Counted from the stretch's first letter, positions 5,764 through 55,012 are shown. The stretch: 64,000 nt of DNA from Patescibacteria group bacterium (GCA_004321885.1 SCQK01000007.1:64001-128000), one strand, 5' to 3'. Numbers and translations: made by a program. Notes: generated by a model not told the origin, from the sequence alone.

Positions 5764-7455
5764 ATGTTACTACATGCGGATAACACGCTGGGAGTCGGAC
5801 AACCGGAAGGAAACAACCGGGTACGAAGGACGTCCCAGAATCCCCGCATGCGCGCAGTTGCAAAAATTTTTCTTCTTCTGGCCGGCTGGCTTATCGTCGT
5901 TTCCATTGTTTCCAATTCGTTTGACAACGACCTGGGCTGGCATTTGCGCTTTGGCCAAGACGCCCTAAGCGGCGATTTTCAGTACACCGACAGTTATACC
6001 TGGGGCTTTGCCGGGCGCGAGTGGGTAAACCACGAATGGGGGGCCGATATTTTATTTTGGATTATTTACAGCCGCGTCGGCTACTTCGCCCTGGCGCTTC
6101 TCATCGGCACGGTAATCTGGGCGGCATTTGTGCTGGCGCCTCTTATTTTTGCGCGTTTCAGTTTAGGCGCTCTCGCGATTTCGCTGCTCATGGCCCTGGC
6201 CGCGGGCTTTACTTTTGTCACGCGCGTCTCCATGGCGGCGCCGCTGTTTTTTGTTTTGCTCTGGTTTTCGCTGGAAAGAAAAAAATATTTTTTCCTGTGG
6301 CCGATTTTATTCTGGGCGTGGTCTTTTCTGCATGGTAGTTGGATACTGGGATTTATTTTAATAAACATTTATTTGGTTGGAGAAATAATTCCCTCCACTA
6401 TTAGAGCCTGCCCTGAACTTGTTTCAGGGGGAGGGACAAAAGGTGGAGTTGGCAAGAAGCTCTGCTGGCAAATCATTTCCGCGGCCGCGATTCTTCTCAA
6501 TCCGTACGGCATAAAACTCTGGCGCGAGGTGCTCTCCTATTTTATATACAGCGACTACAAGCGGCTGATTATTGAATGGCTGCCAAGCTACAGTTACCCC
6601 ATTCGCTGGTGGCCCATAATTATCGCGGGAGCGGCCGGCGTTTTGCTTTACCTGGGGTGGAAAAACAAAAAAGCGTCTTTGACCCACGTATTGTTATTTT
6701 TGGCCATATTTTTAGCCGCCATGCAATACAAGCGCAACAATATTTTGCTGACGCTCGTTTGCGCGCCGATTTTCGCAATAGCTTTGGAAGAAACAAAGAA
6801 GAAACTACTCTCAATTGCCATTCCGAACCCGAAGGGTGAGGAATCCCTTCGCCTTACGAGTAAGTTTAAGGGATTCCTCGCTCCGCTCGGAATGACAACG
6901 GCGATTGTCCTCTTCGCCGTCTCAGCCGTTTATTACCTTCCCCGCCTGCGGGCGCAAAATGACGTCTGGCAGGACAAAAATTTTTTGACCCGGCACGGCT
7001 TTCCGGTCAAAGCCGTTGATTTTGTAAAAAAACTACCGGCCGGAGCGAAAATTTTCAACGAATTCGGCTGGGGCGGTTTTTTTATCTGGCAAACGCCGCA
7101 AGTAAAAATGTATTTTGACGGACGGGGCGCGGCCACCTGGCGCGACGCCAATGGCGAATTCATGCTTAAAAAATATCTGCGCTACCTTGGCGAAAAAAAA
7201 CAGTTGCCCGAATTAAGCAAAACTCCGGCTGAATATATTTTGCTGGAAAAAAACAGGCTGGCCCTGCCGCCGCCCGGCTGGAGCGACAAACTGTTTTTCA
7301 AAAAAGAAAACTTGGCAAAAATAATGGAGCGCAAGCCGCCGTTGCTTGAAACCGACCTGACGAAAAGCAGTGATTGGAAACTGATTTACAGCGACGAGAT
7401 GACGAACATTTGGAAAAGAACCGCGGACATGAATTCCGGCTCAAGCCCGGAATGA
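5764..7455 (+). CDS. polytopic membrane protein, possible GT-C-type glycosyltransferase
   Basis: at least 10 hydrophobic helices; D-N-D-containing first loop (SFDNDLGWHLRFGQ); contains in-frame palindromic repeats at 6391-6440 and 6838-6897; the true start may be the internal Met at about 5845. Confidence 0.45.
   Translation: MLLHADNTLGVGQPEGNNRVRRTSQNPRMRAVAKIFLLLAGWLIVVSIVSNSFDNDLGWHLRFGQDALSGDFQYTDSYTWGFAGREWVNHEWGADILFWIIYSRVGYFALALLIGTVIWAAFVLAPLIFARFSLGALAISLLMALAAGFTFVTRVSMAAPLFFVLLWFSLERKKYFFLWPILFWAWSFLHGSWILGFILINIYLVGEIIPSTIRACPELVSGGGTKGGVGKKLCWQIISAAAILLNPYGIKLWREVLSYFIYSDYKRLIIEWLPSYSYPIRWWPIIIAGAAGVLLYLGWKNKKASLTHVLLFLAIFLAAMQYKRNNILLTLVCAPIFAIALEETKKKLLSIAIPNPKGEESLRLTSKFKGFLAPLGMTTAIVLFAVSAVYYLPRLRAQNDVWQDKNFLTRHGFPVKAVDFVKKLPAGAKIFNEFGWGGFFIWQTPQVKMYFDGRGAATWRDANGEFMLKKYLRYLGEKKQLPELSKTPAEYILLEKNRLALPPPGWSDKLFFKKENLAKIMERKPPLLETDLTKSSDWKLIYSDEMTNIWKRTADMNSGSSPE
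6391..6440. repeat. composite palindromic repeat (CCCTGAAC-TTG-TTTCAGGG core) inside a CDS, in frame
   Basis: near-identical copy at 7738-7795 inside comFC. Confidence 0.8.
6838..6897. repeat. family-A-variant palindromic element (GAGGAATCCC...GGGATTCCTC...CGGAATGACA) in frame
   Basis: related half-copies at 14483-14520, 15248-15285 and 39070-39105. Confidence 0.75.
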
Positions 7456-7464
7456 CAATCGCGG

Positions 7465-8262
7465 CTAACCCCTGGCCAAAGTGAGCCAGTAAATTTTTTG
7501 CGCGCCGGCCGCTTTCAGCACGCGCGCGCATTCCTGCATGGTGGCGCCGGTGGTGTAGACATCATCAACCAGCAGAACGTATGCGGGCGCCGGAGCCGGT
7601 CCCTTCCACGCGAACGCGCCGGCCACGTTTTGCGTCCTTTCCTCTTTGCTTAACCTGGCTTGATGAGGAGTGTAGCGGGTGCGAACTAATACCCCCTCCT
7701 CTATCCTCCCCCTAATAGGGGGAGGGTTCTGTGTGAGTCCCTCCCCTTTTAGAGCCTGCCCTGAACTTGTTTCAGGGGGAGGGATACAGGGAGGGGTATT
7801 CAAAGAGTCCAAAAAAATTTTTGCCAACACTTTCGCCTGGTTAAAGCCGCGCTCGCGTTCGCGGCGCGGGTGCAGGGGAACTGGAAGAACTGACCAGCAT
7901 ATTGGCTCCACAGCCCCGACTAAGTCGGGGACTATGGAGCCAGCCACGCTAATTATCGTTCCGACCGAGCAGAGCGAACGGAGGAACCCCTTTTTCTCAC
8001 TTATTATTTTTTCAAAAACATTTTTAATGTCTTTGGCAAAGCCGTATTTGAATTGTTTTATCAGCCTGCCCACGGGCCCGTTTTCTTCATAAACAAAAAA
8101 AGACGCACCTCGGTCCAGGTGCGCGTCCGCGGGCCAAAGCGCGCACTCATTTTGGTGTTTGGCCCGGCAAAGCTTGCACCACCACTCCCCTTCCACGCCG
8201 CAATCCACGCACGAGACCGGGAAAAGAATATCTTTGAACCAGCGCGCGGAGGCGGCCAGCAT
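7465..8262 (-). CDS. comFC: ComF family protein (zinc ribbon + phosphoribosyltransferase fold)
   Basis: N-terminal C-x2-C...C-x2-C; RGFNQA and LLVDDVYTTGATM PRTase motifs; a 35-aa in-frame repeat-encoded insertion (7690-7800). Confidence 0.7.
   Translation of the reverse strand: MLAASARWFKDILFPVSCVDCGVEGEWWCKLCRAKHQNECALWPADAHLDRGASFFVYEENGPVGRLIKQFKYGFAKDIKNVFEKIISEKKGFLRSLCSVGTIISVAGSIVPDLVGAVEPICWSVLPVPLHPRRERERGFNQAKVLAKIFLDSLNTPPCIPPPETSSGQALKGEGLTQNPPPIRGRIEEGVLVRTRYTPHQARLSKEERTQNVAGAFAWKGPAPAPAYVLLVDDVYTTGATMQECARVLKAAGAQKIYWLTLARG
7690..7800. repeat. composite palindromic repeats (GC-hairpin C family + CCCTGAAC..TTCAGGG) in frame within comFC
   Basis: CCCTCC..GGGAGGG hairpins and a copy of the 6391-6440 element. 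Confidence 0.8.
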
Positions 8263-10747: not shown

Positions 10748-10752
10748 AGGTA

Positions 10753-11433: not shown

Positions 11434-11477
11434 ATGTTTTTCCCTCCCCTTGCGAAGGGGAGGGTTAGGGAGGGGTC

Positions 11478-11907: not shown

Positions 11908-13101
11908 CTATAATTCTTTCTCCATCGCCACTATCGCTTTTATTTCTTCTATCTTTATCCCGCCTTTTTCCGTCGCTGTCTGCGCCAGGGTTTTTCTGTC
12001 GGCCAACGCGCCGCACACCGCGTCCATGTATTCCAAATAAAGAGGGCTCTGTTTCCAGGCGGCCTGCGCGTCCATATATAATAGGTAGGATTCGTCGCGC
12101 AGGTTGATGAATTTTTGTTTCAGGCGCTGGCCCGCCTCGGCGCAGTTTTGCGCCAAACGGCGAAAATCCGTCAGACTAATATATTTTACCTCATCTATGG
12201 GTCCCATTTCAACAGGCGGAGCGGAAATATCCCGCATGCTCTGTTTTACCGGCGCGCTTCCTAACTTGAACGACGAGGATTGTGTAGCCCCCTCCCCTCT
12301 TAGGGAAACCGTCATCTTCCCCTCCCCTTGATAAGGGGAGGGCTCGCCACCACACCAAAATTTTTGGTGTGGTGGCGAGGGAGGGGCAGTCGCAACCGGC
12401 TTCTCTTCAGGCGCCAAAAGCGCGTGCAAAAGCTCGTTGGCTTTTTTCTTGCTCTCGGGCACAGTTGGTCCCCCCCCTCCTTTAGAAGGAGGGGGCAAGG
12501 GGGTGGTCTTGACCTTTTCTGAATGTTCAAACGGGTTAAACGGAGTTGCTGTCGCCGGCAACAATACCTCTTCGCACGCTCCCGCCGCTTTCTCGGCCTG
12601 ATTGGCCGTAAAACCCATGCCACCGTCTTTTATGGAACGCAATAAAATATTTTTCGTTTCTTCGGGCGAGCGCACGTCTTTGAGGCGCAACTGAATAATA
12701 CTGCGCAAGCGATTGATAAAGTTGGGCGGCACTGGAAAATTTATTTTTTTGAGCGCCTGGTCCACCTGGCTTAGGCGCGGCTCGCTCAATTTCGGCGCGT
12801 CGCCCTTGGCCGGCGCCGGCTCTTCCAAAGGCGACCGAAAATCATTATTCGCTTTCTTCGTTCCCATCATCGGCGCCGTGGGATACGGCGGTCGTTTTGG
12901 CGCTACTTTCACTCCCTCCCCTTTTAGGGGAGGGGCAGGGAGTGGGGTATTGTGCGCCGCTTGTCTTACCTGCGACAAAGGCATGCGCACAAAACTGCCG
13001 TCGGCCTTTTTTACCAAAATTGTTGGTTCGTTTGGCATATTATTTACCCCTGCCTCCCTCCCCCTTAAATAAAGGGGGGGACAGGAGGGGGTATTATTCA
13101 C
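11908..13101 (-). CDS. Pro-rich hypothetical protein with four in-frame GC-hairpin repeat insertions
   Basis: the first 20 codons are encoded by a repeat, so the likely true start is MPNEP at about 13038; repeat-encoded segments at 12286-12345, 12470-12500 and 12912-12950. Confidence 0.45.
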   Translation of the reverse strand: MNNTPSCPPLYLRGREAGVNNMPNEPTILVKKADGSFVRMPLSQVRQAAHNTPLPAPPLKGEGVKVAPKRPPYPTAPMMGTKKANNDFRSPLEEPAPAKGDAPKLSEPRLSQVDQALKKINFPVPPNFINRLRSIIQLRLKDVRSPEETKNILLRSIKDGGMGFTANQAEKAAGACEEVLLPATATPFNPFEHSEKVKTTPLPPPSKGGGGPTVPESKKKANELLHALLAPEEKPVATAPPSPPHQKFWCGGEPSPYQGEGKMTVSLRGEGATQSSSFKLGSAPVKQSMRDISAPPVEMGPIDEVKYISLTDFRRLAQNCAEAGQRLKQKFINLRDESYLLYMDAQAAWKQSPLYLEYMDAVCGALADRKTLAQTATEKGGIKIEEIKAIVAMEKEL

Positions 13102-14425
13102 TAACTAATTTTAAGTCTTTCGCCACCTGCGCGGCCAAGGATTCCACGCTGTCAAATTTTTTGGGCAGGCGCAAATAACGTTCGGTGCGCGCTTCTATTT
13201 TTTTTCCATACAAATCGCCCGCAAAATTCAAAACATGAACTTCCAGGCAGTCTTTTTTTGTTAAAGAATTATATCCATAATATAGCAAGCCGGAATACCC
13301 CTTCCCCTGCCCCTCCCCTAAAAGGGGAGGGTGGCTATCGGTGGTTCCTCCCCTTTTTAGGGGGAGGACAAAGGAGGGGGTATTCGCAATGAAAGCGACG
13401 GAGCACGTATACAATCCCCTGGGCAAATTTTTGGCCAGCGCCACGTCCAAGTTGGCCGTGTGAATCCCTACTTTATCCCCTTGTCCATAGCCGGGCAAAA
13501 CCGCGCCGGCCACCACGCGCGAACGGTGTAAAAACACAATTCTGGTTACGGCCGCCGCCAGCGCCGCCGCTCCCAAAATTTGCGTGGCCGATAACGCGTT
13601 GCCATTTAAATAATAATCCAAAATAATGGCGGACACGGGCCAGGACAGCTCGCACAAAGTCGCCACCGAAGCGGTGATTTTTTTCAGGCCGAAATAGTAC
13701 AAAAACATGGCCGCGGCTCCGGATGTAAAAACTATAATGATTAAAGTCGTCCACTGGGCCGCGCCCACCGACGGCAGAGAGGAAAAATAGCGCGCCGCCG
13801 GAATCGCCATAATCAAAACCGTGAGCCCAAAGCGCAAAGCCGCCAGCAGGCCATAGCTGATATTTTTTAGGGAATATTTTCCAAAGGTGGTGGCCGAACC
13901 CCAGGCAAACGCGGCCAGCATGGAAAAACCGGCGGCAATGGGAACAGCCGACATCGCGCTAGAAACCGCGAACGGATTTTTGAAAGTAACAAAATATCCC
14001 GCGACCAGCGCGAGCGGGGCGTAAAAATAAAACGAGCGCGGAAATCGCTCGCGTAAAAATATGGCGGCCAAGATAATCGCGAAAATCGGCTGAAATTTTT
14101 GCAAAAGAATCACTACGGAAATATCTTTGAAGCCCGTGGCAAACAAGGCCTTGGTGATAAAAATCGTGCCCAAAGCCCCGCCAAACAAGGCCACCCAAAA
14201 AATTGCGACCCACTCTTTGCGTTTTATCAGTTTTAACTGGGCGCGGTAAACAACCAAAAACGGCAACAAGGCGACAAAACCGAGCAGGTGCTCCAAAAAC
14301 ACCAGCAAGGCCGGTTGCAAGGAATACAAACGGGGTCGCAAAAAAGTGCCGTCCAAACTCCACAGCAGAGCGGCCAGCGCCACGGCCATTGCCCCGATAA
14401 TCACGCTATTTTTTTTCATAATCAT
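13094..14425 (-). CDS. EamA/DMT-family transporter joined to a riboflavin-kinase-like C-terminal domain
   Basis: 10 TM helices, then GYGQGDKVGIHTANL ... LEVHVLNFAGDLYGKKIEARTERYLRLPKKFDSVESLAAQVAKD resembling the RibF kinase domain; a repeat-encoded insertion at 13305-13385. Confidence 0.5.
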   Translation of the reverse strand: MIMKKNSVIIGAMAVALAALLWSLDGTFLRPRLYSLQPALLVFLEHLLGFVALLPFLVVYRAQLKLIKRKEWVAIFWVALFGGALGTIFITKALFATGFKDISVVILLQKFQPIFAIILAAIFLRERFPRSFYFYAPLALVAGYFVTFKNPFAVSSAMSAVPIAAGFSMLAAFAWGSATTFGKYSLKNISYGLLAALRFGLTVLIMAIPAARYFSSLPSVGAAQWTTLIIIVFTSGAAAMFLYYFGLKKITASVATLCELSWPVSAIILDYYLNGNALSATQILGAAALAAAVTRIVFLHRSRVVAGAVLPGYGQGDKVGIHTANLDVALAKNLPRGLYTCSVAFIANTPSFVLPLKRGGTTDSHPPLLGEGQGKGYSGLLYYGYNSLTKKDCLEVHVLNFAGDLYGKKIEARTERYLRLPKKFDSVESLAAQVAKDLKLVSE

Positions 14426-14480: not shown

Positions 14481-14596
14481 ACCCCACTGTCATTCCGAGC
14501 GGAGCGAGGAATCCCTTATACTACGTTAACAGTTTCTATATCCCCCTTCTTCAAATGCAACACAATCGCCAGCGCCTCGCACAGCCACGAGGCGCG
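14481..14596. repeat. about 115-bp direct repeat, copy 1 (remnant of the 3' end of gene 15271-16254)
   Basis: about 90% identical to 15236-15350; encodes ASWLCEALAIVLHLKKGDIETVNVV* on the minus strand. Confidence 0.8.
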
Positions 14597-14723: not shown

Positions 14724-15248
14724 TTACGGGGTGCTTTTTTTATACTCAACTTTATTCCTCAAATCACTAACAAAACTAATTTTGCCGCCGGCCACTTTCC
14801 GCAATAAGTACGAGCAACTGGACGGCGCGGGCGCGATCAAGTGGCAAAACTTATTTTGTTTTCGCAAATAGTCAACTAAACAATGAAAATCACCATCGCC
14901 GCTGACAATTACGGCCTGATCATAATTCTGATATTCTATCATCGTGTGTAAAACCAATTCGGCGTCACAATTCCCTTTTACTTCACCGTCTTTCAATATT
15001 AGAGTTGGTTTAAATATCAAAATGTAACCAACCTCCTGAAGAAATTTATACAACTCCTCATTGCCAAATAAAAAACCAATGAACATAAACGCCTTCGCGA
15101 CGCTATATTTGTCTTTCAAATACCTGCGAAAACGAAAATAATCCAGCTTCCAACCAATGCGCTGCATACTGAAATATAGATTCTGACTGTCTATAAACGC
15201 GAAATTGTTTTCTTTCATACTTCGTTTCCCTCCCCGCCCCACTGTCAT
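14724..15248 (-). CDS. NYN/LabA-like domain protein (predicted RNase)
   Basis: FIDSQNLY...KGNCDAELV...SGDGDF motifs. Confidence 0.65.
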   Translation of the reverse strand: MTVGRGGKRSMKENNFAFIDSQNLYFSMQRIGWKLDYFRFRRYLKDKYSVAKAFMFIGFLFGNEELYKFLQEVGYILIFKPTLILKDGEVKGNCDAELVLHTMIEYQNYDQAVIVSGDGDFHCLVDYLRKQNKFCHLIAPAPSSCSYLLRKVAGGKISFVSDLRNKVEYKKSTP

Positions 15249-15350
15249 TCTGAGCGGAGCGAGGAATCCCTTACACTACGTTAACAGTTTCTATATCCCC
15301 TTTTTTCAAATGCAACACTATCGCCAGCGCCTCGCGCAGCCAAGAGGCAT
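15236..15350. repeat. about 115-bp direct repeat, copy 2 (authentic 3' end of gene 15271-16254)
   Basis: see copy 1. Confidence 0.8.
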
Positions 15351-25356: not shown

Positions 25357-25433
25357 GTATGGTTCTTTCACAAAGTGCTAAGTAGGCCAGTATATGGCCT
25401 GGTTAGCCACAAAAGAAGGTTTGGGTAAAGAGT

Positions 25434-37563: not shown

Positions 37564-37624
37564 GTCATGCTGAACTTGTTTCAGCATCTCCACTGGGGAT
37601 CCTGAAACAAGTTCAGGATGACAA
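37564..37624. repeat. tandem family-E palindromes (GTCATGCTGAACTTGTTTCAGCAT / ATCCTGAAACAAGTTCAGGATGACA)
   Basis: related copies at 14440-14475 and 45716-45745. Confidence 0.7.
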
Positions 37625-41395: not shown

Positions 41396-43064
<1,669 letters not shown>

Positions 43065-43366: not shown

Positions 43367-43399
43367 ATATTATTCTGTCATTCCCCCGACTAAGTCGGG
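43367..43399. repeat. family-B palindrome in the groES 5' region
   Basis: identity to the other copies. Confidence 0.85.
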
Positions 43400-43494
43400 G
43401 GAATCCAGTTATAATTAAAAAAAAGACGCATATTATCACTCTAAATACCAGAGTGATAACTGTGCACCTCATCTTACCATTTTCTCAAAAAATG

Positions 43495-44960: not shown

Positions 44961-45972
44961 TCCACTCTTCTCTATATTTCGCCCTGGTGTCATTCTCGTG
45001 AAATTTCAAAATGCCGTCGGAAATCACCACGCTCTTGTCGCCCGCGGCGGCTTTTTCTTTCAAAGAGAACATAAGCCGAGCCATCTGAAGCGCTTTTACC
45101 TGCCCTTCAATCAAATCGCCATACGTTCCGGCCCACATTTTTTCCCAAATTGTTTTCCAAATTTTGCCAAGCCGTGAATCGCGCAAACGCAAGCGCGAAA
45201 CAACTTCAAATCGCGCCAAGGCATTGGGCAAGTATTTTTTTGTCCACGAATTCGCGGCCAAAAAATTGGCGTAATAATTGCCGGGGTCGTATATCGGAAT
45301 CATCTGGTGTATCCAATAAGCAAAATGTATGTCATCATCGGCCACGCGTAAATTTTCCAAATTTAAGTGTTCGCTGTCCGCGTAAAACGACAAACAGACG
45401 CGATTTTTGTGCTTTTGGCCATACACGCGCAAACCCCACAATCGCAAAATTAAATTGGTAAAAAACCGCGCCAACCAGACGCGGCGCGGGGCGGCGACGA
45501 TGAAAAAATCAATGTCGCTTTCTTCCTTCGCCTGCTCCATACCCACGCTGTTGCAGACAAAAACCGCTTTCACAAACGGCGCCGAACGGATTTTTTTGGC
45601 GGCCCGGCGCGCGATTTTTAATTTCTTCTCCGTTTCCGCCAGCCGCGCCCGCCGCGCCTCAACTGTCCCCGCTCGCCCGGGAAGAAAATAATAACTGAAT
45701 TTTGTTTCAACCTTTCTGTCATCCTGAACTTGCTTCAGGATCTCTAAAAATTGCGCAAACCCCATCGCCGGCGCCTGCCCCCACACCAAAGAATTTGGTG
45801 TGGGGGGCGTCCACAAAAAAGAATACACCTCTTCGCGCGTCAGAGGATAATCGGCCGAATCAAAATAAGCCAGAGTTTTCTGAATACTTTCAAGAAGAGC
45901 TTTTTCCATAGGGCTCTTTGTCTGAAATTTCCGCCGCACAAATTGCCAAGCCCTTGTTGCCAATTTCCACAA
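44935..45972 (-). CDS. nucleotidyltransferase-domain protein (Pol-beta-like NTase superfamily)
   Basis: NSVGMEQAKEESDIDFFIV; contains in-frame family-D (CCCACACCAAAGAATTTGGTGTGGGGG) and family-E palindromes. Confidence 0.45.
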   Translation of the reverse strand: MWKLATRAWQFVRRKFQTKSPMEKALLESIQKTLAYFDSADYPLTREEVYSFLWTPPTPNSLVWGQAPAMGFAQFLEILKQVQDDRKVETKFSYYFLPGRAGTVEARRARLAETEKKLKIARRAAKKIRSAPFVKAVFVCNSVGMEQAKEESDIDFFIVAAPRRVWLARFFTNLILRLWGLRVYGQKHKNRVCLSFYADSEHLNLENLRVADDDIHFAYWIHQMIPIYDPGNYYANFLAANSWTKKYLPNALARFEVVSRLRLRDSRLGKIWKTIWEKMWAGTYGDLIEGQVKALQMARLMFSLKEKAAAGDKSVVISDGILKFHENDTRAKYREEWKLKITNYQ

Positions 45973-47318: not shown

Positions 47319-48560
47319 TTATTCTTTAGTTTCTTCTACTGGCTCTTCTTTGCTTTCCCCAACCTTTTCCTCAATCGGTTCAGCCGCCGCTTCTTCGCTG
47401 GACATTTCCTGAGTGCCGCCCTTTTCTTTCACATTGATGCCCCAGCCCGTAAGCTGGGCCGCCAGGCGCACGTTTTGCCCGCCGCGGCCAATGGCCAAAG
47501 AAAACTGGTCCGGCGCGACATACGCCGAAGCCGTTTTGCTGGCTTCGTCCAATTCCACTTCCGCCACTTTGGCTGGAGACAGCGCGTTGGCAATATAGTT
47601 GACCGGACTTTCGCCATAACGGATGATATCTATTTTTTCTCCGCCCAGCTCTTCTATTATAGTATTGATGCGTCCACCGCGCTGGCCAATGCACGAACCG
47701 ATGGGGTCTATCTGCTCGTCGTTCGCGTCCACAGCCACCTTGGAACGGTAGCCGGGCTCGCGCGCGATGCCTTTTATTTCAATCAGTCCTTCTTTAAGCT
47801 CGGGAATTTCCTGCTTGAAAATTTCCCGCACCAAACCCGCGTCGGCGCGCGATAAAATTATCTCGGGTCCGCGCGGCCCCATCTGCACCGACTGCACCAA
47901 AAATTTCAGCTTGCTCCCGGAACGATAAAAATCGCGGCTGTTTTGCTGTTCCGCGGGCATAATGCCAGTAACTTTGCCCAAATCAACCAAAGTTTTTCTG
48001 CCTTCCACGCGCTGAATCGTGCCGACAATTACCTGACCTTCCTGACCCTTGAAGTCGTCAAACACCATACTGCGCTCGGCTTCGCGCACCTTTTGGATTA
48101 TCACCTGCTTGGCGGTCTGCGCGGCCATGCGTCCGAAATCGCCCCCAGCCTCCAGCTCAATTTCCAGCACCTCGCCGGCCCGGGCGCCTTTTTTGATTTT
48201 TTTCGCCTCCGAGAGCATCATTTCCAGCTTGGGATTAAAGCGCGGCAAATCAGCCACTTCTTCCTCGGTGAGCTCGCGGCCTTCCTCTTTGGCCTTTTCA
48301 CGCCGCTTGGTCAATTCTTCCTGGGCCGCGACCAGCGCCTCCTCGGCAGTATCTTCCACCACGATTTTCACGTCCCACGCTTTCATATCGCCGGTCTCGG
48401 GGTCAAATTTCACCTTGATGTTCTGTTGTTTGTTGCCAAAATCCTTGCGATAAGCCGCGGCCAGCGCCACTTCTATGGCCTCAAGCACCGCCTCGTAGGG
48501 CAGATTTTTTTCCTCGCACAAAAATTGTATGGCCTTGCTGATTTCCGACATAGTTGTCAT
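47319..48560 (-). CDS. nusA: transcription termination/antitermination factor NusA
   Basis: N-terminal domain + S1 + KH architecture, 413 aa. Confidence 0.9.
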   Translation of the reverse strand: MTTMSEISKAIQFLCEEKNLPYEAVLEAIEVALAAAYRKDFGNKQQNIKVKFDPETGDMKAWDVKIVVEDTAEEALVAAQEELTKRREKAKEEGRELTEEEVADLPRFNPKLEMMLSEAKKIKKGARAGEVLEIELEAGGDFGRMAAQTAKQVIIQKVREAERSMVFDDFKGQEGQVIVGTIQRVEGRKTLVDLGKVTGIMPAEQQNSRDFYRSGSKLKFLVQSVQMGPRGPEIILSRADAGLVREIFKQEIPELKEGLIEIKGIAREPGYRSKVAVDANDEQIDPIGSCIGQRGGRINTIIEELGGEKIDIIRYGESPVNYIANALSPAKVAEVELDEASKTASAYVAPDQFSLAIGRGGQNVRLAAQLTGWGINVKEKGGTQEMSSEEAAAEPIEEKVGESKEEPVEETKE

Positions 48561-48588
48561 TCCCCCGACTTAGTCGGGGGAATCCAGT
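48556..48588. repeat. family-B palindrome abutting the nusA start codon
   Basis: identity. Confidence 0.85.
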
Positions 48589-49396: not shown

Positions 49397-50290
49397 TCAT
49401 TTCATAATTATATCTCCAATTTCGTCCGTTCGTAAAATTTCCGCGGCCGCACGTTCTAATTTTTTCAACACTCGCAAAGAGGGATGACCGTACCTATTTT
49501 TTCCCACGGAAATTATCGCTTTATCCGCGTTTACGGCTCGCAAAAACTCGGCGCTGGTGGAACTATCGCTGCCATGATGCCCGACTTTCAAAATATCGGA
49601 CCTCAACGCTGTACACCCCTCCCCTATTAGGGGAGGAACAGGGGGAGGGGTATTTTGGCTAGAACAATACTTCGCCAGCAACGCCTGCTCCAGCGGTTCC
49701 TCCATATCGCCGGTAAACATTATAGTCGTACTCGCTCTGGAAAGCCGGAAAACAATTGAACGATTGTTATAATCCCCATCTTTTGTATCTATGCCCAGGG
49801 CCGGGTCCGGGGCCAAAAAATTCAGCTCTGAACCGGCGAACGCCAGCTCTTTCGGGCCGCTTATCACGCTTGCAACCGCCCTCTCTTCCTGCTGGTATCT
49901 GTACCAAACCTGCCAGTACGCGTCAAATTCTTTCTTGGCTCCATTGGTGATAATATTTTTTACCTCGTATCTTTTTAAAACATCCGCACAGCCGCCGTAA
50001 TGGTCCAGGTCAGGATGCGTAATCAGCAAATAATCAATGGTGCGGTCGTAAAACGGCAGATACTTGCCCAGTTTAGTCAGCACTTTGCGATTGGGTCCGC
50101 AATCCACCAGCATTTTTGCGCCGTCATCAAACTGTATCAGCGCCGAGTCGCCCTGACCCACGTCAAAAAAAATAACGCGAAAACCTTTTTCCGCGAAAAA
50201 AAACAAATTAAAAAGCAAACCGAGAATTATTATCAGGCAACCAACCAGGGCCGAAACTACTTTCTTGCGCATAAAATCTGATTCACCCAC
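49397..50290 (-). CDS. MBL-fold hydrolase corresponding to the ComEC C-terminal domain (stand-alone, TM-anchored)
   Basis: FFDVGQGDSALIQ...DCGP...ITHPDLDHYGG...VGHHGS; an in-frame GC hairpin at 49612-49650. Confidence 0.65.
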   Translation of the reverse strand: MGESDFMRKKVVSALVGCLIIILGLLFNLFFFAEKGFRVIFFDVGQGDSALIQFDDGAKMLVDCGPNRKVLTKLGKYLPFYDRTIDYLLITHPDLDHYGGCADVLKRYEVKNIITNGAKKEFDAYWQVWYRYQQEERAVASVISGPKELAFAGSELNFLAPDPALGIDTKDGDYNNRSIVFRLSRASTTIMFTGDMEEPLEQALLAKYCSSQNTPPPVPPLIGEGCTALRSDILKVGHHGSDSSTSAEFLRAVNADKAIISVGKNRYGHPSLRVLKKLERAAAEILRTDEIGDIIMK

Positions 50291-50928
50291 TGTTCGTTTT
50301 CTTTGACAAAAATTTCTTTTTCCACGCCAAAAGATAGCTCTTCCAAGAACGCGCGGATTTTTTCCGGACGATGATAATATGATTCAATGAGCACTTCCAC
50401 CCCGCCGGTTTTCACGAGCGGCGGGTCTTTTTGGTTGATATTGGTCACCACAAAAATTCCGCCGTCTTTGAGCACGCGATAGACCTCGTCAAAAAACCGG
50501 CGCGGATCTTTTAGGTGCGCGATAAGAAAAGCGGCCAGCACGATGTCAAAGGTTTCGTTTGCAAACGGCAAATTTTCCGCGTCGCCCACCACTGTCGTAA
50601 TGTCATACTGAATTTGTTTCATTATCTCCGGTCGCAAAATTTTTCGCTTCAGCATCTCCAGCATCTTGGGCGAGATGTCCAAAGCGGTCACGCACGCTCC
50701 CCGCTTGGCCAAATACAAAGAGGCCCGCCCGGTGCCCGCGCCGACATCCAAAATTTTTTTGCCCGCCACCACACCAAAATTTTTAGTGTGGTGGCCGGAC
50801 ACGTCGCCGAGCATGGAAAATAATTTTCCCTGTTCAAAACTGTTCAGGTATTTTTCTTTTTCATCGTAATACTTGGCCGCCAAATTATATCCTTCGGCCG
50901 ATGACAGAACCTGTATTTTTTTGGTCAT
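50257..50928 (-). CDS. class I SAM-dependent methyltransferase
   Basis: ILDVGAGTGRASLYLAKRG motif I; a family-D palindrome in frame (50765-50800). Confidence 0.7.
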   Translation of the reverse strand: MTKKIQVLSSAEGYNLAAKYYDEKEKYLNSFEQGKLFSMLGDVSGHHTKNFGVVAGKKILDVGAGTGRASLYLAKRGACVTALDISPKMLEMLKRKILRPEIMKQIQYDITTVVGDAENLPFANETFDIVLAAFLIAHLKDPRRFFDEVYRVLKDGGIFVVTNINQKDPPLVKTGGVEVLIESYYHRPEKIRAFLEELSFGVEKEIFVKENEQWVNQILCARK

Positions 50929-52463
50929 AGATGTTTACCCCTCCCTAACCCTCCCCTTATAAAGGGGAGGGCAATAATAATATACAACAATATCGTCATC
51001 CACCAGCTGATTCGTATTTCCAGCGCGGCCCAGCCCTGTTTTCCAAACCATTCCACTAACATTATAACATACCCAAGTCCGACGCCAACAATCCAGGCCA
51101 CTATCTGTCCCAAAGGAAAAAATATGAAACCGAGCATGACCGCGGCGAATCCAAAAAGCATCAGCCACGGGATAATCCACAGCACCAGCAAATTCACGAG
51201 CGGCGCAACGATAGAGAGGCGGCCGAATTGAAACAGCATCAAAGGCAAAGTGGCGATGATGGCGGAAAGGGTTTGCACCAATGTTTGAAAGAAAAAATTA
51301 ATACTGTCATTGCGAGGAGCCGGAAGCGACGAAGCAATCCCAAGCGATAAATATACGAGTCCCAAAGTCGCTAAAAAAGACAGTTGAAACCCCGCGTCCC
51401 ACACCAGCACGTACGGATTAAAAAGCAACATCAGCGCCGCGGTCAGCGCCAGCACATTGCCCACGCGCGACAAGCGACCCATTTGTTGCGCCAGCAAAAC
51501 AATCACGCCCATTATTCCGGCGCGCACCACCGAAGCCGAGGCGCCGGTAAAGAGCACGAATAAAATTATGCCAACGACCACGGCCCAAAACGCGCGAGGG
51601 CGCGACAGCCCGGCCAGAATAAAAAAACTCATCAGCGCCAAGGCGATGATACTAATGTTGTATCCGGATATGGCGATAATATGAGTGATGCCCGAACGAT
51701 TAAAATCCTCCAGCAGCTCCGTCGGCAGGCCGCTACGCGCGCCGTAGAGCAGTCCGGCCATCAAACTGCTCTTCGGCTCTGGCCAAAGTTTGTCCACCTG
51801 ATTCGCGACAGCCGATTTAAGGCGTAACATGTCATTGCGAGCGACCGTAGGGAGCGCGGCAATCCCATTCTTTGCAAGGGATTGCTTCGTCGTTTCACTC
51901 CTCGCAATGACAGGATTCCCGCACACCGACCAAATCCCATAGCGCGCCAAATACTGGTCATAGCGAAATCCGTCCGGGCTCGCTTTTGGCTCTTGCAATA
52001 CACAAGACAAATTCAACTCCTCTCCATACTCATAGCGCGGATACAGTGGCAGCCAAAAAATAATTTTACCGGAAATATTTTTTGGACAAACAAACGACTG
52101 CCCCGCGCAACTTTTTACTTTCGCCACGTATTTCACGTTGCTTATCCCCGCTTCCGGCTCTTCGCTTACAGCCGCCGTCACTTCCATTTTCTCGCCGTTG
52201 TAATATTTGATACTGCTCGGCGTGATTTTCGGCACGCTGATTAAAAAACGCAAGCCGCCCAAAATAAAAAACAACGCGCAAAGCAGGGCGAAGCGCCAAA
52301 CTTTTTTCTGCCACAGCATTACGGCGAAAAAAAGCGCGGCAAACGCCGCGATAAACAAAGGAAACTGCCAATCACTATTTTCCTGAAGCGAAAACAAACT
52401 CACGCCGGCTATAAAACAAAAGCAAAACGCGAGAAACGTTTTGCTTTTAGAGTGCATTGTCAT
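50925..52463 (-). CDS. comEC: ComEC/Rec2 competence channel protein (N-terminal + competence domains)
   Basis: IIAISGYNISIIAL ... SASVVRAGIMG ... GFQLSFLATLG; start placed at MTMHSK (52463), because the longer ORF call would overlap leuS by 220 nt; two family-A elements in frame. Confidence 0.7.
   Translation of the reverse strand: MTMHSKSKTFLAFCFCFIAGVSLFSLQENSDWQFPLFIAAFAALFFAVMLWQKKVWRFALLCALFFILGGLRFLISVPKITPSSIKYYNGEKMEVTAAVSEEPEAGISNVKYVAKVKSCAGQSFVCPKNISGKIIFWLPLYPRYEYGEELNLSCVLQEPKASPDGFRYDQYLARYGIWSVCGNPVIARSETTKQSLAKNGIAALPTVARNDMLRLKSAVANQVDKLWPEPKSSLMAGLLYGARSGLPTELLEDFNRSGITHIIAISGYNISIIALALMSFFILAGLSRPRAFWAVVVGIILFVLFTGASASVVRAGIMGVIVLLAQQMGRLSRVGNVLALTAALMLLFNPYVLVWDAGFQLSFLATLGLVYLSLGIASSLPAPRNDSINFFFQTLVQTLSAIIATLPLMLFQFGRLSIVAPLVNLLVLWIIPWLMLFGFAAVMLGFIFFPLGQIVAWIVGVGLGYVIMLVEWFGKQGWAALEIRISWWMTILLYIIIALPFIRGGLGRGKHL
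51831..51911. repeat. family-A palindromic element in frame inside comEC (a half copy at 51305-51341)
   Basis: encodes ...IAALPTVARNDM... Confidence 0.8.
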
Positions 52464-52474
52464 TTTAAACACGC

Positions 52475-55012
52475 TCACACAACTATACTCACCAACTTTC
52501 CTTTCACGTAAATCACTTTCTTGGGTTGTTTGCCTTCCAGCCATCTCTGAATTTTTTCGCTGGCGAGCGCGCGGCTCTTCGCCTCTTCTTCGGAGATTCC
52601 CGCCACCACTTCCAAAGTGTCGCGCAACTTGCCATTCACCTGCACGGCCAGAGTGATTTCTTTTTCTTTGGCCAGCTCGGGGTCGTACTTCGGCCACGGT
52701 TCAAATGTGATGGATTTTTTATGTCCCAATAGCGACCACAACTCTTCGCACATGTGCGGAGCGAAGGGCGAAAGAATTTTTACGAATAATTCAAAATTCG
52801 CGATGGAAATTTTTGCCTGCTTTGAAAATTCATTACTCAATTCCATCATTTTCGCTATGGCCGTATTAAATCTCATCGCTTCAATATCTTCGGTGACTTT
52901 TTTGATTGTTTGGTGAAGTAGCTGCGTCATGCTGTCATTGCGAGGAGCCGAAGGCGACGTGGCAATCCCTTTCTTTGTTTGGGATTGCTTCGCTTCGCTC
53001 GCAATGACATTGAGCCCCCACACCCTCTCCAAAAACCTACGCACCCCTATCAATCCATTCGTATCCCACTCCACGGCCTGGTCAAACGGCCCCATGAACA
53101 TTATATACGTGCGCAAAGAATCCGCGCCGAATTTTTCCACCATTTCGTCCGGGTTTACCACGTTGCCTTTTGATTTACTCATTTTTTCTCCGCCTTTGGC
53201 TAAAATCATGCCGTGGCTGGTGCGTTTTTTGTACGGCTCACGCGTGGGCACAGCGCCGATGTCAAACAAAAACTGATTCCAAAAACGGGAATACAACAAA
53301 TGTAGAACCGTGTGCTCCATGCCGCCATTATACCAATCCACGCCGCCTTCGCCCGGCTTCGCGGGCTTCGGCGGGCAAAGCCAATATTTTAGCTTTTCCA
53401 TTGAGGCCAATTTCTTATCGTTTTTCGGGTCGCAGTAGCGCAAAAAATACCAACTGCTTCCGGCCCAATTCGGCATGGTGTCTGTTTCGCGCCGAGCCGG
53501 GCCGCCACATTTCGGGCATTTTGTTTTCACCCATTTTTCCATCGCGGCCAAGGGCGATTCGCCTGTGTCGGTCGGCTCATATTTTTTCACTTTCGGCAAT
53601 TCCAAAGGCAAATCTTCTTCCGCCAGCGGAATCCATCCTGGATTCAATCGCTCACCATCGTTTGGAAATTGGAAATTGGAAATTGGAAATTCCGCTTGTT
53701 TTTCGCACGCGGGACAAAAAACAAGCGGGATGGGTTCGCCCCAATAGCGCTGTCGCGAAAACACCCAATCGCGGAGTTTGTATTGCACTTTTTTCTCGCC
53801 AATCTTTTTTTCTTCCAGCCACTTCATTATTTTTTCCATCGGCTCGGGCACGATTTCCTTTATCGGCAAATTAAATTTCTTGGCAAACTCACTGTCGCGC
53901 TCGTCGTGCGCGGGCACGGCCATAATGGCGCCGGTGCCATAACCGGCCAAAACATAATCCGCTACCCACACCGGAATTTCCTTACCCGTGGCCGGGTTAA
54001 TCGCTTTGATACCCTTCAATTCCACGCCTGTTTTCTCTTTTTGAAGCTCTGTCCTCTCTAAATCCGATTTTTTCTTAGCTGATTCAACATATTTTTTTAC
54101 TTCGTCTATATTTGGAAATTGGAAATTGGAAATTGGAAATTTGAGGAGCGAAGCGACGAGTTCATGTTCGGGCGCGACAACCATGTACGTGGCGCCGAAG
54201 AGAGTGTCGGGGCGAGTGGTGAAGACCTCAAGCACACTGTCATTGCGAGGAGCCGAAGGCGACGTGGCAATCCCTTTCTTTGTTTGGGATTGCTTCACTT
54301 CGTTCGCAATGACAAATTTAATCATCGCGCCTTCGCTTCTGCCAATCCAATTTTCCTGCTGGACTTTTGCGCGTTCAATATAATCCACCTCTTTCAAGCC
54401 CTCCAGTAATTTATCCGCGTACTTGGTAATCGCCAGCATCCATTGCTCCTTATTGCGCCGCTCCACCGGCGTACCACAGCGCTCGCACTTGCCGTCCACC
54501 ACTTCCTCGTTGGCTAAGCCGATTTTACACGACGGGCACCAGTTTATGGGCATGGCTTTTTTGTAAGCCAAACCGTGCTTGAAAAGCTGTAAAAAAATCC
54601 ACTGGGTCCATTTGTAATATTTCGGGTCCGTGGTATCCACCTGCCGCGACCAATCAAAACTTAAACCGAGCGATTTTAGCTGGCGCGTGAAATTGGAGAT
54701 GTTTTTTTTCGTCACCTCGGCCGGGGGTTTGCCGGTCTTGATAGCAAAATTTTCCGTCGGCAGGCCGAAAGCGTCAAATCCAATAGGATACAAAACATTG
54801 TAGCCCTCCATGCGGCGCTTGCGCGAAATAATATCCATGGCCGTGTAGGCGCGCGGATGTCCCACGTGCAAACCCTCGCCGCTCGGATACGGAAACTCAA
54901 TCAAAGAATAAAACTTCTTTTTTTTCTTATCTTCTTTAACCTCAAAAGTCCCGTTCTCTTCCCAAAACTTCTGCCACTTTTTTTCAATTTTTTTCGGGTC
55001 GTATTTTGGCAT
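52475..55012 (-). CDS. leuS: leucine--tRNA ligase
   Basis: HVGHPRAYT (HIGH) and KMSKS motifs, 845 aa; in-frame family-A elements twice ([20 protein letters not shown] duplicated) and (GGAAATT)n runs twice. Confidence 0.9.
52934..53009. repeat. family-A palindromic element in frame in leuS
   Basis: copy at 54239-54314. Confidence 0.85.
53663..53691. repeat. (GGAAATT)x4 heptamer microsatellite in frame in leuS
   Basis: second run at 54107-54140; encodes [10 protein letters not shown] twice. Confidence 0.85.
54239..54314. repeat. family-A palindromic element in frame in leuS
   Basis: near-identical to 52934-53009. Confidence 0.85.

Follow-up and report, generated by a model that had tools for sequence, protein, structure and literature searches.

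Hairpin repeats in a patescibacterial genome segment

What are the palindromes that recur along this DNA, and how have they come to lie in frame inside genes such as leuS, comEC and rsmA? The window, i.e. the whole stretch of DNA that was analysed, is 64 kb long. On sequence grounds the organism belongs to the Patescibacteria (CPR), near Magasanikbacteria: its LeuS is identical to an NCBI Patescibacteria protein, whose nearest relatives come from Magasanikbacteria and Uhrbacteria. The window contains 49 copies of hairpin repeats, 21 to 140 nt long, which belong to about nine families and occupy 3.4% of the sequence. In 27 of the 49 cases the copy is intragenic and in frame, and these copies are spread over 11 intact genes.

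Counts in the window were compared with those expected by chance. With at most 1 mismatch, GTCATTGCGAG was found at 17 sites (1.16 expected), the 32-nt B unit at 4 sites with up to 3 mismatches (0 expected), and family E at 3 sites (0 expected). The published pattern for Ssn-related motifs (SRM) gave 9 matches against 0.18 expected, all B copies included; this search yielded seven B copies and one unit resembling the Neisseria Transformation Sequence (NTS). Upon folding as single-stranded DNA, every element tested (A, A′, B, E, F, H and K) formed a stable hairpin, with z between −4 and −11. Perfect hairpins reached 0.62 per kb, compared to 0.04 per kb in the syntenic relative L122, a ∼15 fold difference. 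A preliminary description had reported GTCAT repeats in frame within genes, and the counts, the folds and the intact ORFs all bear this out. It had also given at least five families GTCAT/ATGAC at both ends. This holds for A and A′ only, as B and E are tagged at one end and F is untagged. Nor are all five related through such ends, since F, together with the further families G, H, I and K, has no tag.

The tagged families

Families A, A′, B and E are built alike: TGTC stands unpaired as a tag, the stem begins with AT, and the tail is rich in C. A and A′ are dimers of inverted units, tags outward, which start with GTCAT and finish with ATGAC. Their copies are the following, with the strand where one is assigned:

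52933..53009, A inverted dimer, 77 nt, leuS site 2, encodes 25 aa; fold −26.7 kcal/mol, z −8.0
54238..54314, A inverted dimer, 77 nt, leuS site 1, encodes 25 aa
51830..51912, A dimer, 83 nt (VIARSETTKQSLAKNGIAALPTVARND), in comEC
51305..51341, plus strand, A half unit, left arm only (GIASSLPAPRND), in comEC
36855..36937, A dimer, 83 nt, intergenic, 5′ edge of a 2700-aa surface-protein ORF
25433..25572, A dimer, 140 nt, intergenic, two further hairpins nested in it
28357..28496, A dimer, 140 nt, intergenic, reverse complement of the 25433 copy
38019..38037, minus strand, A terminal fragment (..CTCGCAATGACA), in rsmA
6820..6898, A′ dimer (ATTCCGA..GGAATCCC..GGGATTCC..CGGAATGACA), in a 563-aa membrane protein
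14488..14515, plus strand, A′ half unit TGTCATTCCGAGCGGAGCGAGGAATCCC, intergenic
15243..15270, plus strand, A′ half unit, at the start of a NYN-domain ORF
39064..39094, minus strand, A′ half unit, in tsaC (SFRARRGIP)

The two leuS copies are 97% identical to each other, and a ∼415-nt inverted duplication has the copy at 25433..25572 in the middle of its left arm. As a side observation, the terminal ATGACA of the A′ half unit at 15243..15270, read on the minus strand, provides the ATG of the NYN-domain ORF.

Outside the window, the A termini TGTCATTGCGAG..CTCGCAATGACA were found as exact 12-nt matches at at least 120 loci in many phyla, with element lengths from 71 to 99 nt and no 3-nt periodicity. 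Neither a target-site duplication nor a target motif was detected in 127 A flank pairs (for k = 3, 1 match seen, 2 expected).

B and E are single units: (T)GTCAT tags just one end, and the other carries the C-rich tail (CCAG, CYCC). B consists of TGTC, an 11-bp stem starting with AT, a TAA loop and a CCAG tail; in E, the TGTC is followed by an 8-bp stem that begins with AT, and the loop has 5 nt.

37771..37804, plus strand, B, in rsmA, SRM pattern match
43032..43064, plus strand, B, between groEL and groES
43376..43408, plus strand, B, upstream of groES
48555..48587, plus strand, B, 5′ edge of nusA
56647..56680, minus strand, B, upstream of trx
59063..59095, minus strand, B, infB-rny intergenic region
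59200..59233, minus strand, B, infB-rny intergenic region
60888..60915, plus strand, NTS-like SRM unit TGTCATTCCAGCGCAGGCGGGAATCCAC, between rny and the HU gene
37564..37587, plus strand, E, intergenic
37599..37622, minus strand, E, intergenic, inverted relative to the 37564 copy
45718..45741, plus strand, E, in a 345-aa ORF
7757..7784, E-like hairpin (CCCTGAACTTGTTTCAGGG), untagged, in a comFC-like gene

No A, A′ or E copy matched the SRM pattern; these families are assigned to the class by the anatomy of their tag, stem and tail and, in the case of A, also because it flanks ssn genes (see below).

The untagged families

Family F shares only an inner stem-loop with B. Family G (CCCTCCCCT..AGGGGAGGG) has 14 copies, and family H reads GCCACCACACC...

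37900..38014, F compound palindrome (GGCTCCATAG..CTATGGAGCC, twice), in rsmA
58924..59006, F palindrome with a B-type inner stem-loop, intergenic, upstream of infB
7899..7930, F-like unit, in the comFC-like gene
7705..7755, two G hairpins (CCTCCCCC..GGGGGAGG), in the comFC-like gene
12290..12495, cluster of three G and one H hairpin (H at 12343-12379), in a 397-aa ORF
12914..12934, G, in the 397-aa ORF
13311..13370, two G, riboflavin-kinase part of an EamA-RibF ORF
49615..49651, G, in the MBL hydrolase gene (PPVPPLIGEG), not in the syntenic orthologue
50949..50971, G, 3′ end of comEC
11442..11464, 41338-41364, 55812-55832 and 58828-58848, G, intergenic
50765..50795, H, in a methyltransferase gene (GHHTKNFGVVA)
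45778..45806, H, in the 345-aa ORF
53661..53691, I heptamer run (GGAAATT, about four units), leuS site 3, encodes 10 aa
54111..54141, I heptamer run, leuS editing domain, encodes 10 aa

F, G, H, I and K act like the tagged families, no partner enzyme was found for them, and they may spread by another route.

Host genes remain intact, and a relative lacks the insertions

The main hosts are the following:

52475..55012, minus strand, leuS, intact, 845 aa, two A and two I
50925..52463, minus strand, comEC, A (one full, one half) and one G
37637..38662, minus strand, rsmA/ksgA, intact, 341 aa, B, F and an A fragment
38753..39376, minus strand, tsaC/yrdC, intact, 207 aa, one A′ half unit

In addition, the comFC-like gene hosts two G, one E-like and one F-like unit, the 563-aa membrane protein gene an A′, and the 345-aa ORF an E and an H. 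These genes had all been named as hosts before, and each does carry repeats: the 20-aa peptide described as duplicated in LeuS occurs twice in the intact ORF, comEC has its 1.5 A copies plus a G, and rsmA has its F and B plus an A fragment. Together, F and the A fragment make an insert of ∼45 aa that separates the two KsgA domains. Every host ORF has its full length and its conserved domains, which speaks against frameshifted pseudogenes. One ORF, at 55940-56692, was discarded as spurious, the real gene there being trx (56314-56634, minus strand).

In L122, where the SRM pattern had 0 matches, every insertion tested was missing, from LeuS, the methyltransferase, the MBL hydrolase and ComEC alike. 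The H hairpin of the methyltransferase is a clean 11-aa insertion, facing an 11-aa gap in the L122 orthologue. We conclude that these are insertions specific to the lineage, in housekeeping genes that have stayed intact, as the preliminary description had proposed, and not ancient protein features. The inserts are presumably translated and located in surface loops; the AlphaFold model had too low a mean pLDDT (49) to be of use.

Two LeuS loops are used repeatedly across CPR

LeuS site 1 is natively a 15-aa segment, and in ∼30 of 110 CPR orthologues it is expanded by repeat peptides starting with V-I-A, V-I-P or V-I-L. Strictly A-type carriers alone require at least 9 state changes on the NJ tree. 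Two LeuS proteins that are 92% identical (P0059 and P0063) have an A-type and an NTS-type dimer, respectively, at the same codon. Site 2 follows the same pattern, and another orthologue, P0007, has A copies at both LeuS positions used in the window. Two LeuS loops have thus been occupied repeatedly, by different SRM families, across CPR orthologues.

Family A brackets a GIY-YIG nuclease gene in other genomes

Ssn is a GIY-YIG site-specific nuclease that cuts single-stranded DNA beside its hairpin; the gene is arranged as NTS-ssnA-NTS, and every Ssn clade comes with a hairpin variant of its own (Chenal et al. 2025, PMC11893778). In genomes other than this one, among them CPR (Woesebacteria locus L038), a 95-aa GIY-YIG gene (PF01541, E = 2e-16) is bracketed by two A arms. 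At least one A terminus lies within 220 nt of the gene in 60 of the 71 cases, and both strict termini within 200 nt at 28 of the 60 evaluable loci. The density of A termini is 2.9 per kb near the gene, versus 0.32 per kb elsewhere. The ssn-bearing unit with its A arms measures ∼360-590 nt, and the right arm of the leuS copy at 52933..53009 is identical to that of two such units (L137 and L139). More distant homologues, with GTCAT-tagged hairpins of their own on their flanks, exist in Neisseria, Azospirillum, Aeromonas, Rhizobium, Spirosoma and Planktothrix. The homologue in Neisseria has 48% identity and NTS on its flanks, and on this basis we place the A-bracketed genes in the Ssn family. This association of Ssn with A, found independently here, agrees with the published pairing of Ssn and repeats.

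No ssn gene was found in the window, and as this covers 64 kb only, the cognate nuclease of this organism is unproven. No ssn partner of A′, B or E was found either, and scans of viral contigs gave no match.

How the repeats may have spread

The starting point is what was observed: the repeats, their intact hosts, their absence from the syntenic relative, the hot spots, and the link of A arms with ssn elsewhere. The probable explanation is that the genome was colonised by hairpin repeats with a history of spread and turnover, the GTCAT-tagged ones belonging to the CGTC/TGTC-tagged REP superfamily, or SRM class, of Ssn recognition sites. The tagged hairpins would be the single-stranded DNA sites recognised by small GIY-YIG Ssn nucleases, and family A the ORF-less form of the unit whose two arms bracket ssn. 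Copies would spread within and between genomes via hairpins in single-stranded DNA, leaving no target-site duplication, and the best candidate for initiation is Ssn cutting beside the tag; we infer that Ssn mobilises the repeats. Most new copies would fall in genes because the genome is 90% coding. The survivors would be frame-keeping, stop-free copies in permissive loops, translated as extra loops of 8-45 aa. Occupied sites would then turn over, one SRM family being swapped for another at the same codon. GIY-YIG nucleases hydrolyse DNA without religation, and the Ssn model therefore lacks an integration step.

Host processes could have spread the palindromes instead of Ssn, for instance template switching at the hairpins, ectopic gene conversion, or recombination with foreign single-stranded DNA that had been taken up; ssn would then be either a parasite with palindrome loops as its homing sites or a regulator that has been domesticated. 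There are ∼40 ORF-less copies for each ssn unit (128 elements against 3 genes in unbiased genome loci), the untagged G, H, F and I enter genes equally well with no nuclease known for them, and the near identity of the two leuS A copies suggests gene conversion. Moreover, Ssn in Neisseria modulates transformation by limiting it, and is not described as a transposase (PMC11893778). However, the 12-nt termini and the arms are exactly conserved across phyla next to a gene that is 62-74% identical, which suits a co-transferred unit, and the pairing of each Ssn clade with its own hairpin variant parallels that of RAYT and REP. We consider spread by host processes without Ssn unlikely, though worth keeping in mind.

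The preliminary description had suggested REP/REPIN elements moved by RAYT, or hairpin MITEs of the IS200/IS605 type. There are real similarities with these systems: hairpin singlets and inverted doublets, an unpaired tag, a partner gene flanked by its own repeats, and no target-site duplication, which suits single-strand transposition of the HUH type. Yet REPs of that kind carry a GTAG tag instead of TGTC, REPINs are extragenic, and their partner is an HUH tyrosine transposase, whereas that of family A in other genomes is a hydrolytic GIY-YIG nuclease, as found at the A arms of 60 of 71 loci. A search of the window revealed no RAYT, IS200/IS605 gene or other Y1/HUH transposase and no GTAG tag, the documented partner being Ssn, and in the survey of Di Nocera et al. 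CGTC repeats did not flank any RAYT (PMC3733652). Such a mobiliser is highly improbable.

We give hardly any credence to classical MITEs of a DDE insertion sequence, mobilised in trans from an IS1595-type remnant at 26090-26455. A does have 12-nt terminal inverted repeats, and the two 140-nt A copies, inverted relative to each other, enclose an ORF with an IS1595-type zinc ribbon. But this 121-aa ORF is a zinc ribbon only, without a DDE domain, the surrounding inverted repeat is a 415-nt segmental duplication that reaches past the A copies, target-site duplications are missing from the 127 flank pairs, and across phyla A arms bracket ssn, not a transposase. Finally, that the intragenic segments are old functional features, or their hosts pseudogenes, is next to inconceivable in spite of the two LeuS positions shared with P0007: the segments are missing from the closest orthologues as well as the syntenic relative, their DNA is a palindrome identical to intergenic copies in unrelated phyla, carriers are scattered on the tree with different families at the same codon, and the host ORFs are full length with conserved domains.

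Comparison with known repeats

The kind of repeat is already known. The CGTC/TGTC-tagged REP superfamily includes dRS3 of Neisseria and RPE-4 and RPE-6 of Rickettsia; its members have an unpaired CGTC (often TGTC) tag, 8-9 bp stems starting with AT, 4-5 nt loops and a tail near CCA, and they are mostly inverted dimers, some of them intragenic, as with different REPs at one recB site in two Xanthomonas species (Di Nocera, De Gregorio and Rocco 2013, PMC3733652). B and E fit this anatomy, A and A′ carry the TGTC tag and C-rich tail, and inverted dimers and intragenic copies are common to both sets. The differences are that in the window B has a longer stem (11 bp) and A a bulged one, and that the published survey covered 5 phyla but no CPR, and concluded that the class has no dedicated enzyme (PMC3733652).

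The SRM/NTS hairpin is directional, with (C/T)GTC as its upstream tag, an ATTCC..GGAAT-type stem and CC(A/G)G for a tail, and the repeats share these features. Both B and the 60888 unit conform to the published pattern, whereas A, A′ and E do not. A is a long dimer with bulges, and its bases are conserved exactly from phylum to phylum. A arms bracket Ssn-family genes as in NTS-ssnA-NTS, although the window has no ssn gene. Intragenic copies amount to 11 of 24 for A, A′, B and E in the window, compared to 2% of NTS in N. meningitidis (PMC11893778), a study from which Patescibacteria are absent.

The likenesses to REPs and to Rickettsia palindromic elements, drawn in the preliminary description, are apt. 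The latter are in-frame palindromes in many unrelated housekeeping genes of a reduced genome (Ogata et al. 2000, as related in PMC10969869 and PMC3733652). They add peptides, as in the window, and RPE-4 and RPE-6 are CGTC-tagged (PMC3733652), the likeness being drawn at the level of description. According to the same accounts they are ∼100-150 bp long and Rickettsia-specific, while the window elements are of 21 to 140 nt and about nine families; recurrent use of one codon by different families is absent from the description of RPE as given in these two sources.

What is new is the phylum, the intragenic load and the turnover at hot spots. This CPR segment is an unusually gene-invasive instance of a known repeat class.

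Hairpin repeats of the window

About 90% of the 64-kb window is coding, and its gene content is typical of CPR bacteria (groES-groEL, nusA, infB, rny, yidC, prfA-like, leuS, comEC, ksgA/rsmA, tsaC, trx). It also holds a 2700-aa surface protein and a T4SS-like cluster adjoining a large serine recombinase. The window LeuS is identical to an NCBI entry named 'Patescibacteria group bacterium', and its nearest relatives, at 60–80% identity, belong to Magasanikbacteria, Uhrbacteria and further Patescibacteria.

We counted 49 hairpin-repeat copies in about nine families, which together make up 3.4% of the window. Families beyond those of the preliminary description were found by a palindrome scan and a direct-repeat scan of the window. 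That the families are real is borne out by their numbers, which are far above chance, and by their folding: the family A terminus GTCATTGCGAG is present at 17 sites with at most 1 mismatch, compared to 1.2 expected in the window, no 32-nt B unit or E unit is expected there by chance, and every copy tested folds into a stable single-stranded DNA hairpin. Scanning the whole window with Rfam at the gathering score gave no family for any element.

Hairpin-repeat families of the window
Family A: TGTCATTGCGAG..GCAATCCC-loop-GGGATTGC..CTCGCAATGACA, 77–140 nt in the window
Family A′: architecture of A, with ATTCCGAG arms
Family B: TGTC-ATTCCCCCGAC-TAA-GTCGGGGGAAT-CCAG
Family E: TGTC-ATCCTGAA-CTTGT-TTCAGGAT-CYCC
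Family F: GGCTCCATAG..CTATGGAGCC
Family G: CCCTCCCCT..AGGGGAGGG
Family H: GCCACCACACCAAAA..TTTTGGTGTGGTGGC
Family I: about four GGAAATT heptamers in a run
Family K: two 105-nt palindromes

The families had been described as carrying GTCAT/ATGAC at both ends. This applies to A and A′ only, as B and E are tagged at one end and F is untagged. That untagged families (F, G, H, I and K) are present as well shows that this genome accumulates small hairpin insertions generally. The two K palindromes (56199–56305 and 56699–56803, ∼105 nt each) have in common a 71-nt GC-rich core of 93% identity, while their outer stems of ∼25 bp are perfectly paired and wholly different from each other. They lie on the minus strand, one just 3′ of trx and the other just 3′ of infB, like giant terminators, and Rfam gives them chance-level matches only.

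Several other features of the window were recorded. A tRNA-Ser gene (2154–2246), the large serine recombinase (4164–5672) and T4SS-like genes encoding a VirB4/TraG-like ATPase and a PrgI-like protein (8876–11906) suggest that a conjugative or mobilisable element is integrated here. The adjoining 16–24 kb stretch is low in GC (42–48%), with many large ORFs without a Pfam match, and at 23886–24592 a minimal nucleotidyltransferase comes directly after a HEPN protein, and the two form a toxin-antitoxin-like pair. Two 140-nt A copies around an IS1595-like ORF were considered as a composite transposon. This was rejected, as the inverted repeat is a duplication of ∼415 nt (25328–25741 and 28180–28602, 79–96% complementary) reaching beyond the elements, with an A element central in each arm. 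The duplication brackets 2.4 kb containing a 121-aa ORF, which has the IS1595-type zinc ribbon only, and paralogues of the C-terminus of the 2700-aa surface protein, found as direct repeats at 23494, 27023 and 29235. It looks like a repeat-mediated rearrangement.

Anatomy of the tagged families

Families A, A′, B and E all have TGTC directly before the stem. In B, the unpaired 4-nt TGTC is followed by an 11-bp stem (ATTCCCCCGAC) starting with AT, a 3-nt loop and a CCAG tail; in E, by an 8-bp stem (ATCCTGAA), also starting with AT, a 5-nt loop and a C-rich tail (CYCC). An A or A′ half consists of TGTC, ATTGC../ATTCC.., ..GCAAT/GGAAT and CCC, and the full element is made of two such halves, inverted, with the tags outward. 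The E copies at 37564 and 37599 likewise form an inverted pair.

This anatomy was compared with two published descriptions. The CGTC-tagged REP superfamily (Di Nocera et al. 2013, PMC3733652) has a tag that is often TGTC, stems of 8–9 bp starting with AT, loops of 4–5 nt and a tail near CCA; its members are mostly inverted dimers, with some intragenic copies, and include the Neisseria dRS3 and the Rickettsia conorii RPE-4 and RPE-6 elements. E and B agree with this stem, loop and tail, and A, A′ and the E pair with the inverted dimer. The A and A′ halves fit only in part, because their stems, although starting with ATTGC or ATTCC, are bulged and longer. The second description is the published pattern of the Ssn-related motif (SRM), HGTCWYN(0-2)YYVSBRHN(0-5)WNVSBRGN(0-2)RNCYNB, which has 9 matches in the window compared to 0.18 expected: all 7 B copies, a unit at 60888–60915 resembling the Neisseria Transformation Sequence (NTS), and one chance-looking match inside infB. 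Scanning the window placed A, A′ and E outside this pattern, yet they have the SRM anatomy, and A brackets ssn genes in other genomes. We conclude that the GTCAT-tagged families very probably belong to the CGTC-REP/SRM class.

The likeness to Rickettsia palindromic elements lies in palindromes inserted in frame within functional ORFs and absent from orthologues; at the sequence level the tie is indirect, being the CGTC tag of RPE-4 and RPE-6 only. A literature search by element termini returned unrelated primer sequences only, and we found no paper tying these repeats to Patescibacteria.

Insertions in intact genes

The density of CGTC-REP/SRM-type repeats is high in this Patescibacteria window. 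More than half of the 49 copies lie inside intact genes: 27 copies are found inside 11 ORFs. Each specific insertion reported in the preliminary description was recovered (leuS, comEC, rsmA, tsaC, the comFC-like gene, the membrane protein and the 345-aa ORF). ORF 55940–56692, in contrast, is spurious as a host gene; it overlies trx of the opposite strand. Two objections had been foreseen. The hosts are not pseudogenes, as all 11 are full length with conserved domains. Nor are the segments ancient protein features, as shown by a syntenic locus of a relative (L122) with the gene order rny-infB-trx-leuS-comEC-methyltransferase-MBL-ykuD. Its proteins, 57–84% identical to those of the window, lack the element-coded stretches: the methyltransferase has a clean 11-aa gap in place of the H copy, the MBL hydrolase an 8-aa gap in place of the G copy, ComEC has gaps at the A copies and LeuS at all four inserted copies. 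This 22-kb locus has no SRM match and a single perfect 9-bp-stem hairpin (0.04 per kb), compared to 40 in the window (0.62 per kb).

Sequence alignment was used to place the inserts on solved structures; an AlphaFold2 model of LeuS (12-sequence alignment) had a mean pLDDT of 49 and was unsuitable for this. Relative to T. thermophilus LeuRS (1H3N), LeuS site 1 (A copy 54238–54314) is a turn bordering the editing domain on its N-terminal side, and site 2 (A copy 52933–53009) is in the linker preceding the anticodon-binding domain. The rsmA insert, ∼45 aa long, falls between the methyltransferase domain and the C-terminal domain of B. subtilis KsgA (6IFS), and the half unit of tsaC overlays a short native loop of TsaC (9D3H). 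All these positions vary in length among orthologues. From these alignments, the inserts in LeuS, KsgA and TsaC are predicted to occupy surface loops.

Two G hairpins are also present in ORF 13094–14425, whose product joins an EamA-type transporter, made of two EamA repeats, to a riboflavin-kinase domain at the C-terminus; both hairpins lie in the kinase part. The elements call for caution in annotation. Spurious ORFs are generated by the repeats (e.g. 55940–56692, 28310–28669 and 25502–25960), and false or alternative start codons can be created by them, since on the minus strand the terminal ATGACA of a B copy (48555–48560) and of an A′ copy (15243–15248) provides the nusA and NYN-domain ORFs with their first ATG if these are called mechanically.

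Hot spots in LeuS across CPR bacteria

We surveyed the 120 closest CPR orthologues of LeuS, and located the site-1 segment in 110 of them. Between WIGRSEGA and VFTTRPDT, this segment has a native length of 15 aa, and roughly 30 of the 110 orthologues have it lengthened by peptides that the repeats encode. Directly after one Phe, always the same, the peptides begin with V-I-A (A type), V-I-P (A′ or NTS type) or V-I-L (ATTCTGA type). Site 2 shows the same pattern. Of the related orthologues, a quarter to a third have these two loops filled by differing repeat families. Carriers of strict A-type inserts alone require at least 9 state changes on a neighbour-joining tree, their nearest neighbours being without insert. 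In two LeuS that are 92% identical (P0059 and P0063), the same codon holds an A dimer in one and an NTS-type dimer, GTCATTCCCGCGGAAGCGGGAATCCAG-AAAA-CTGGATCCCCGATCAGGTCGGGGATGAC, in the other. The two A copies of the window leuS are 97% identical to each other, and the LeuS of a relative (P0007, locus L121) has its own pair of A copies at the same two sites. This pattern points to elements that entered repeatedly, to occupied sites where one element gave way to another (ectopic conversion), or to a combination of the two.

The leuS gene of the window also carries a run of four AATTTCC heptamers at two places (53661–53691, which is site 3, and 54111–54141). At one homologous site, P0007 has four units of a different heptamer, AATATCC, and peptides of the PISNFQFP type are found at sites 1 and 2 of other orthologues (P0025, P0004). 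Tandem heptamers may be a separate insertion class. Many of the CPR LeuS (P0002–P0120) are 950–1350 aa long, owing to fused alpha/beta-hydrolase, NUDIX or HAD domains; P0063 has a serine-hydrolase domain of ∼190 aa within the zinc-finger loop, at site 3.

Family A in other genomes and its partner gene

The exact pattern TGTCATTGCGAG-N45-75-CTCGCAATGACA was found at 120 or more loci, whose hosts, among the matches listed, include Bacteroidota, Cyanobacteria, Chloroflexota, Planctomycetota, Proteobacteria, Nitrospirae, Verrucomicrobia, Omnitrophota, Firmicutes and CPR bacteria. Family A is not lineage-specific. Its inner stem (GAAGCAATCTC / GAGATTGCTTC) is conserved as well, and the bulged arms and the loops are variable. 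Among the matches listed, copies are 71–99 nt long without 3-nt periodicity, long ORFs contain only 10 of 128, and 127 flank pairs show no conserved target motif. The in-frame property seen in the window is therefore a survivorship filter rather than a design feature. In a scan of viral contigs, only 2 contigs had long A units and 34 had short A, with no long A′-type unit and no B, hence phages are not an obvious main vehicle.

Clustering of the ORFs neighbouring A copies revealed one recurrent small protein, a 95-aa GIY-YIG nuclease, which is 62–74% identical between one genome each of Woesebacteria and Nostoc and the genome of locus L111. For the reverse test, 80 metagenome loci encoding relatives of this protein were taken. 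The gene occupies exactly the 'loop' of an A element, TGTCATTGCGAG-arm-GCAATCTC - ATG..ORF..stop - GAGATTGC-arm-CTCGCAATGACA, in units of 358–586 nt. Both strict A termini were present at 28 of the 60 evaluable loci, and 60 of 71 GIY-YIG genes had at least one A terminus within 220 nt; the density of A termini was 2.9 per kb near the gene, compared to 0.32 per kb elsewhere. In the leuS copy at 52933, every base of the right arm agrees with the right arm of such units.

The Ssn family was described recently (Chenal et al. 2025, PMC11893778), in work that did not dwell on intragenic copies or on CPR bacteria, so the GIY-YIG link found here is a rediscovery. These are GIY-YIG nucleases of ∼94 aa (cd10448) that bind NTS/SRM hairpins in single-stranded DNA and cut just upstream; such site-specific cleavage beside the hairpin was shown for the Neisseria and Wolbachia homologues. 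In that report ssn genes have their own repeats on either side, 'like an insertion sequence', Neisseria Ssn modulates natural transformation, and only 2% of Neisseria NTS copies are intragenic. The gene family found here shares 48% identity with the NTS-flanked Neisseria homologue, and A repeats are found on both sides of ssn in other genomes, including a CPR genome (Woesebacteria, locus L038) where an ORF-less A is nested within the A-bracketed unit. More distant homologues (42–67% identity), from cultured Planktothrix, Rhizobium, Spirosoma, Neisseria, Azospirillum and Aeromonas, each have their own GTCAT-tagged flanking hairpins. On the Azospirillum lipoferum plasmid AZO_p3 (L243, 255106–256190), an ssn-type GIY-YIG gene flanked by SRM dimers interrupts a conserved operon between sufB and sufC, a placement typical of a selfish insertion.

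No ssn homologue was found within the window, and BLAST gave no DNA match to an ssn unit in plasmid or phage collections. The GIY-YIG protein matches no NCBIfam model, and among solved structures the UPF0213 protein 1ZG2 comes closest to it, at E = 0.003 only. GIY-YIG genes are among those horizontally transferred from Patescibacteria (PMC12455944).

Candidate mechanisms of spread

We tentatively propose Ssn as a possible mobiliser of the repeats. Ssn would cut single-stranded DNA during replication or after DNA uptake, and so start the copying or relocation of a hairpin. Integration would then proceed through host repair, a step assigned to the host because, to our knowledge, GIY-YIG enzymes do not religate. 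Selection would keep stop-free, frame-preserving copies in permissive loops only, and the copies surviving in genes would be translated.

The main alternative is that the palindromes spread via host recombination, ssn being a passenger or a domesticated regulator. We disfavour DDE-type MITEs: the elements do have terminal inverted repeats, but target-site duplication was not above chance in the 127 flank pairs of family A, among the matches listed. The RAYT or IS200/IS605 transposase envisaged in the preliminary description is also disfavoured, as the window has no Y1 transposase, the tag is TGTC and not GTAG, and the gene flanked by the repeats in other genomes encodes a GIY-YIG protein. The CGTC-REP class 'apparently lacks a dedicated transposase' (PMC3733652).

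Taken together with the Ssn proposal, the data can be read more broadly: in Patescibacteria, Ssn-type hairpins would be truly mobile, protein-remodelling DNA, repeatedly entering and swapping at a few permissive codons of essential enzymes (e.g. the two LeuS loops) and spreading between lineages with a ∼400-nt ssn cassette, perhaps via natural competence, a route on which CPR bacteria depend. We regard this joint reading as doubtful.

Significance

Selfish in-frame palindromes in essential genes have long been seen mainly as a Rickettsia curiosity. The present observation is real and of a known kind; what is noteworthy is the phylum, the number of families, the share inside essential genes and the recurrent hot spots. 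The repeat load and the LeuS hot spots seem to be new here. The filled, empty and swapped LeuS sites make up a natural series for testing the mobilisation of hairpins by Ssn, and can also serve to study enzyme tolerance of peptide insertions and the repeat-derived share of the extra length of CPR proteins. If the mobile-DNA reading is true, Ssn would be the mobiliser that has long been missing for CGTC-tagged REPs, RPE-4 and RPE-6 among them, and CPR genomes would be the richest natural record of in-frame selfish DNA.
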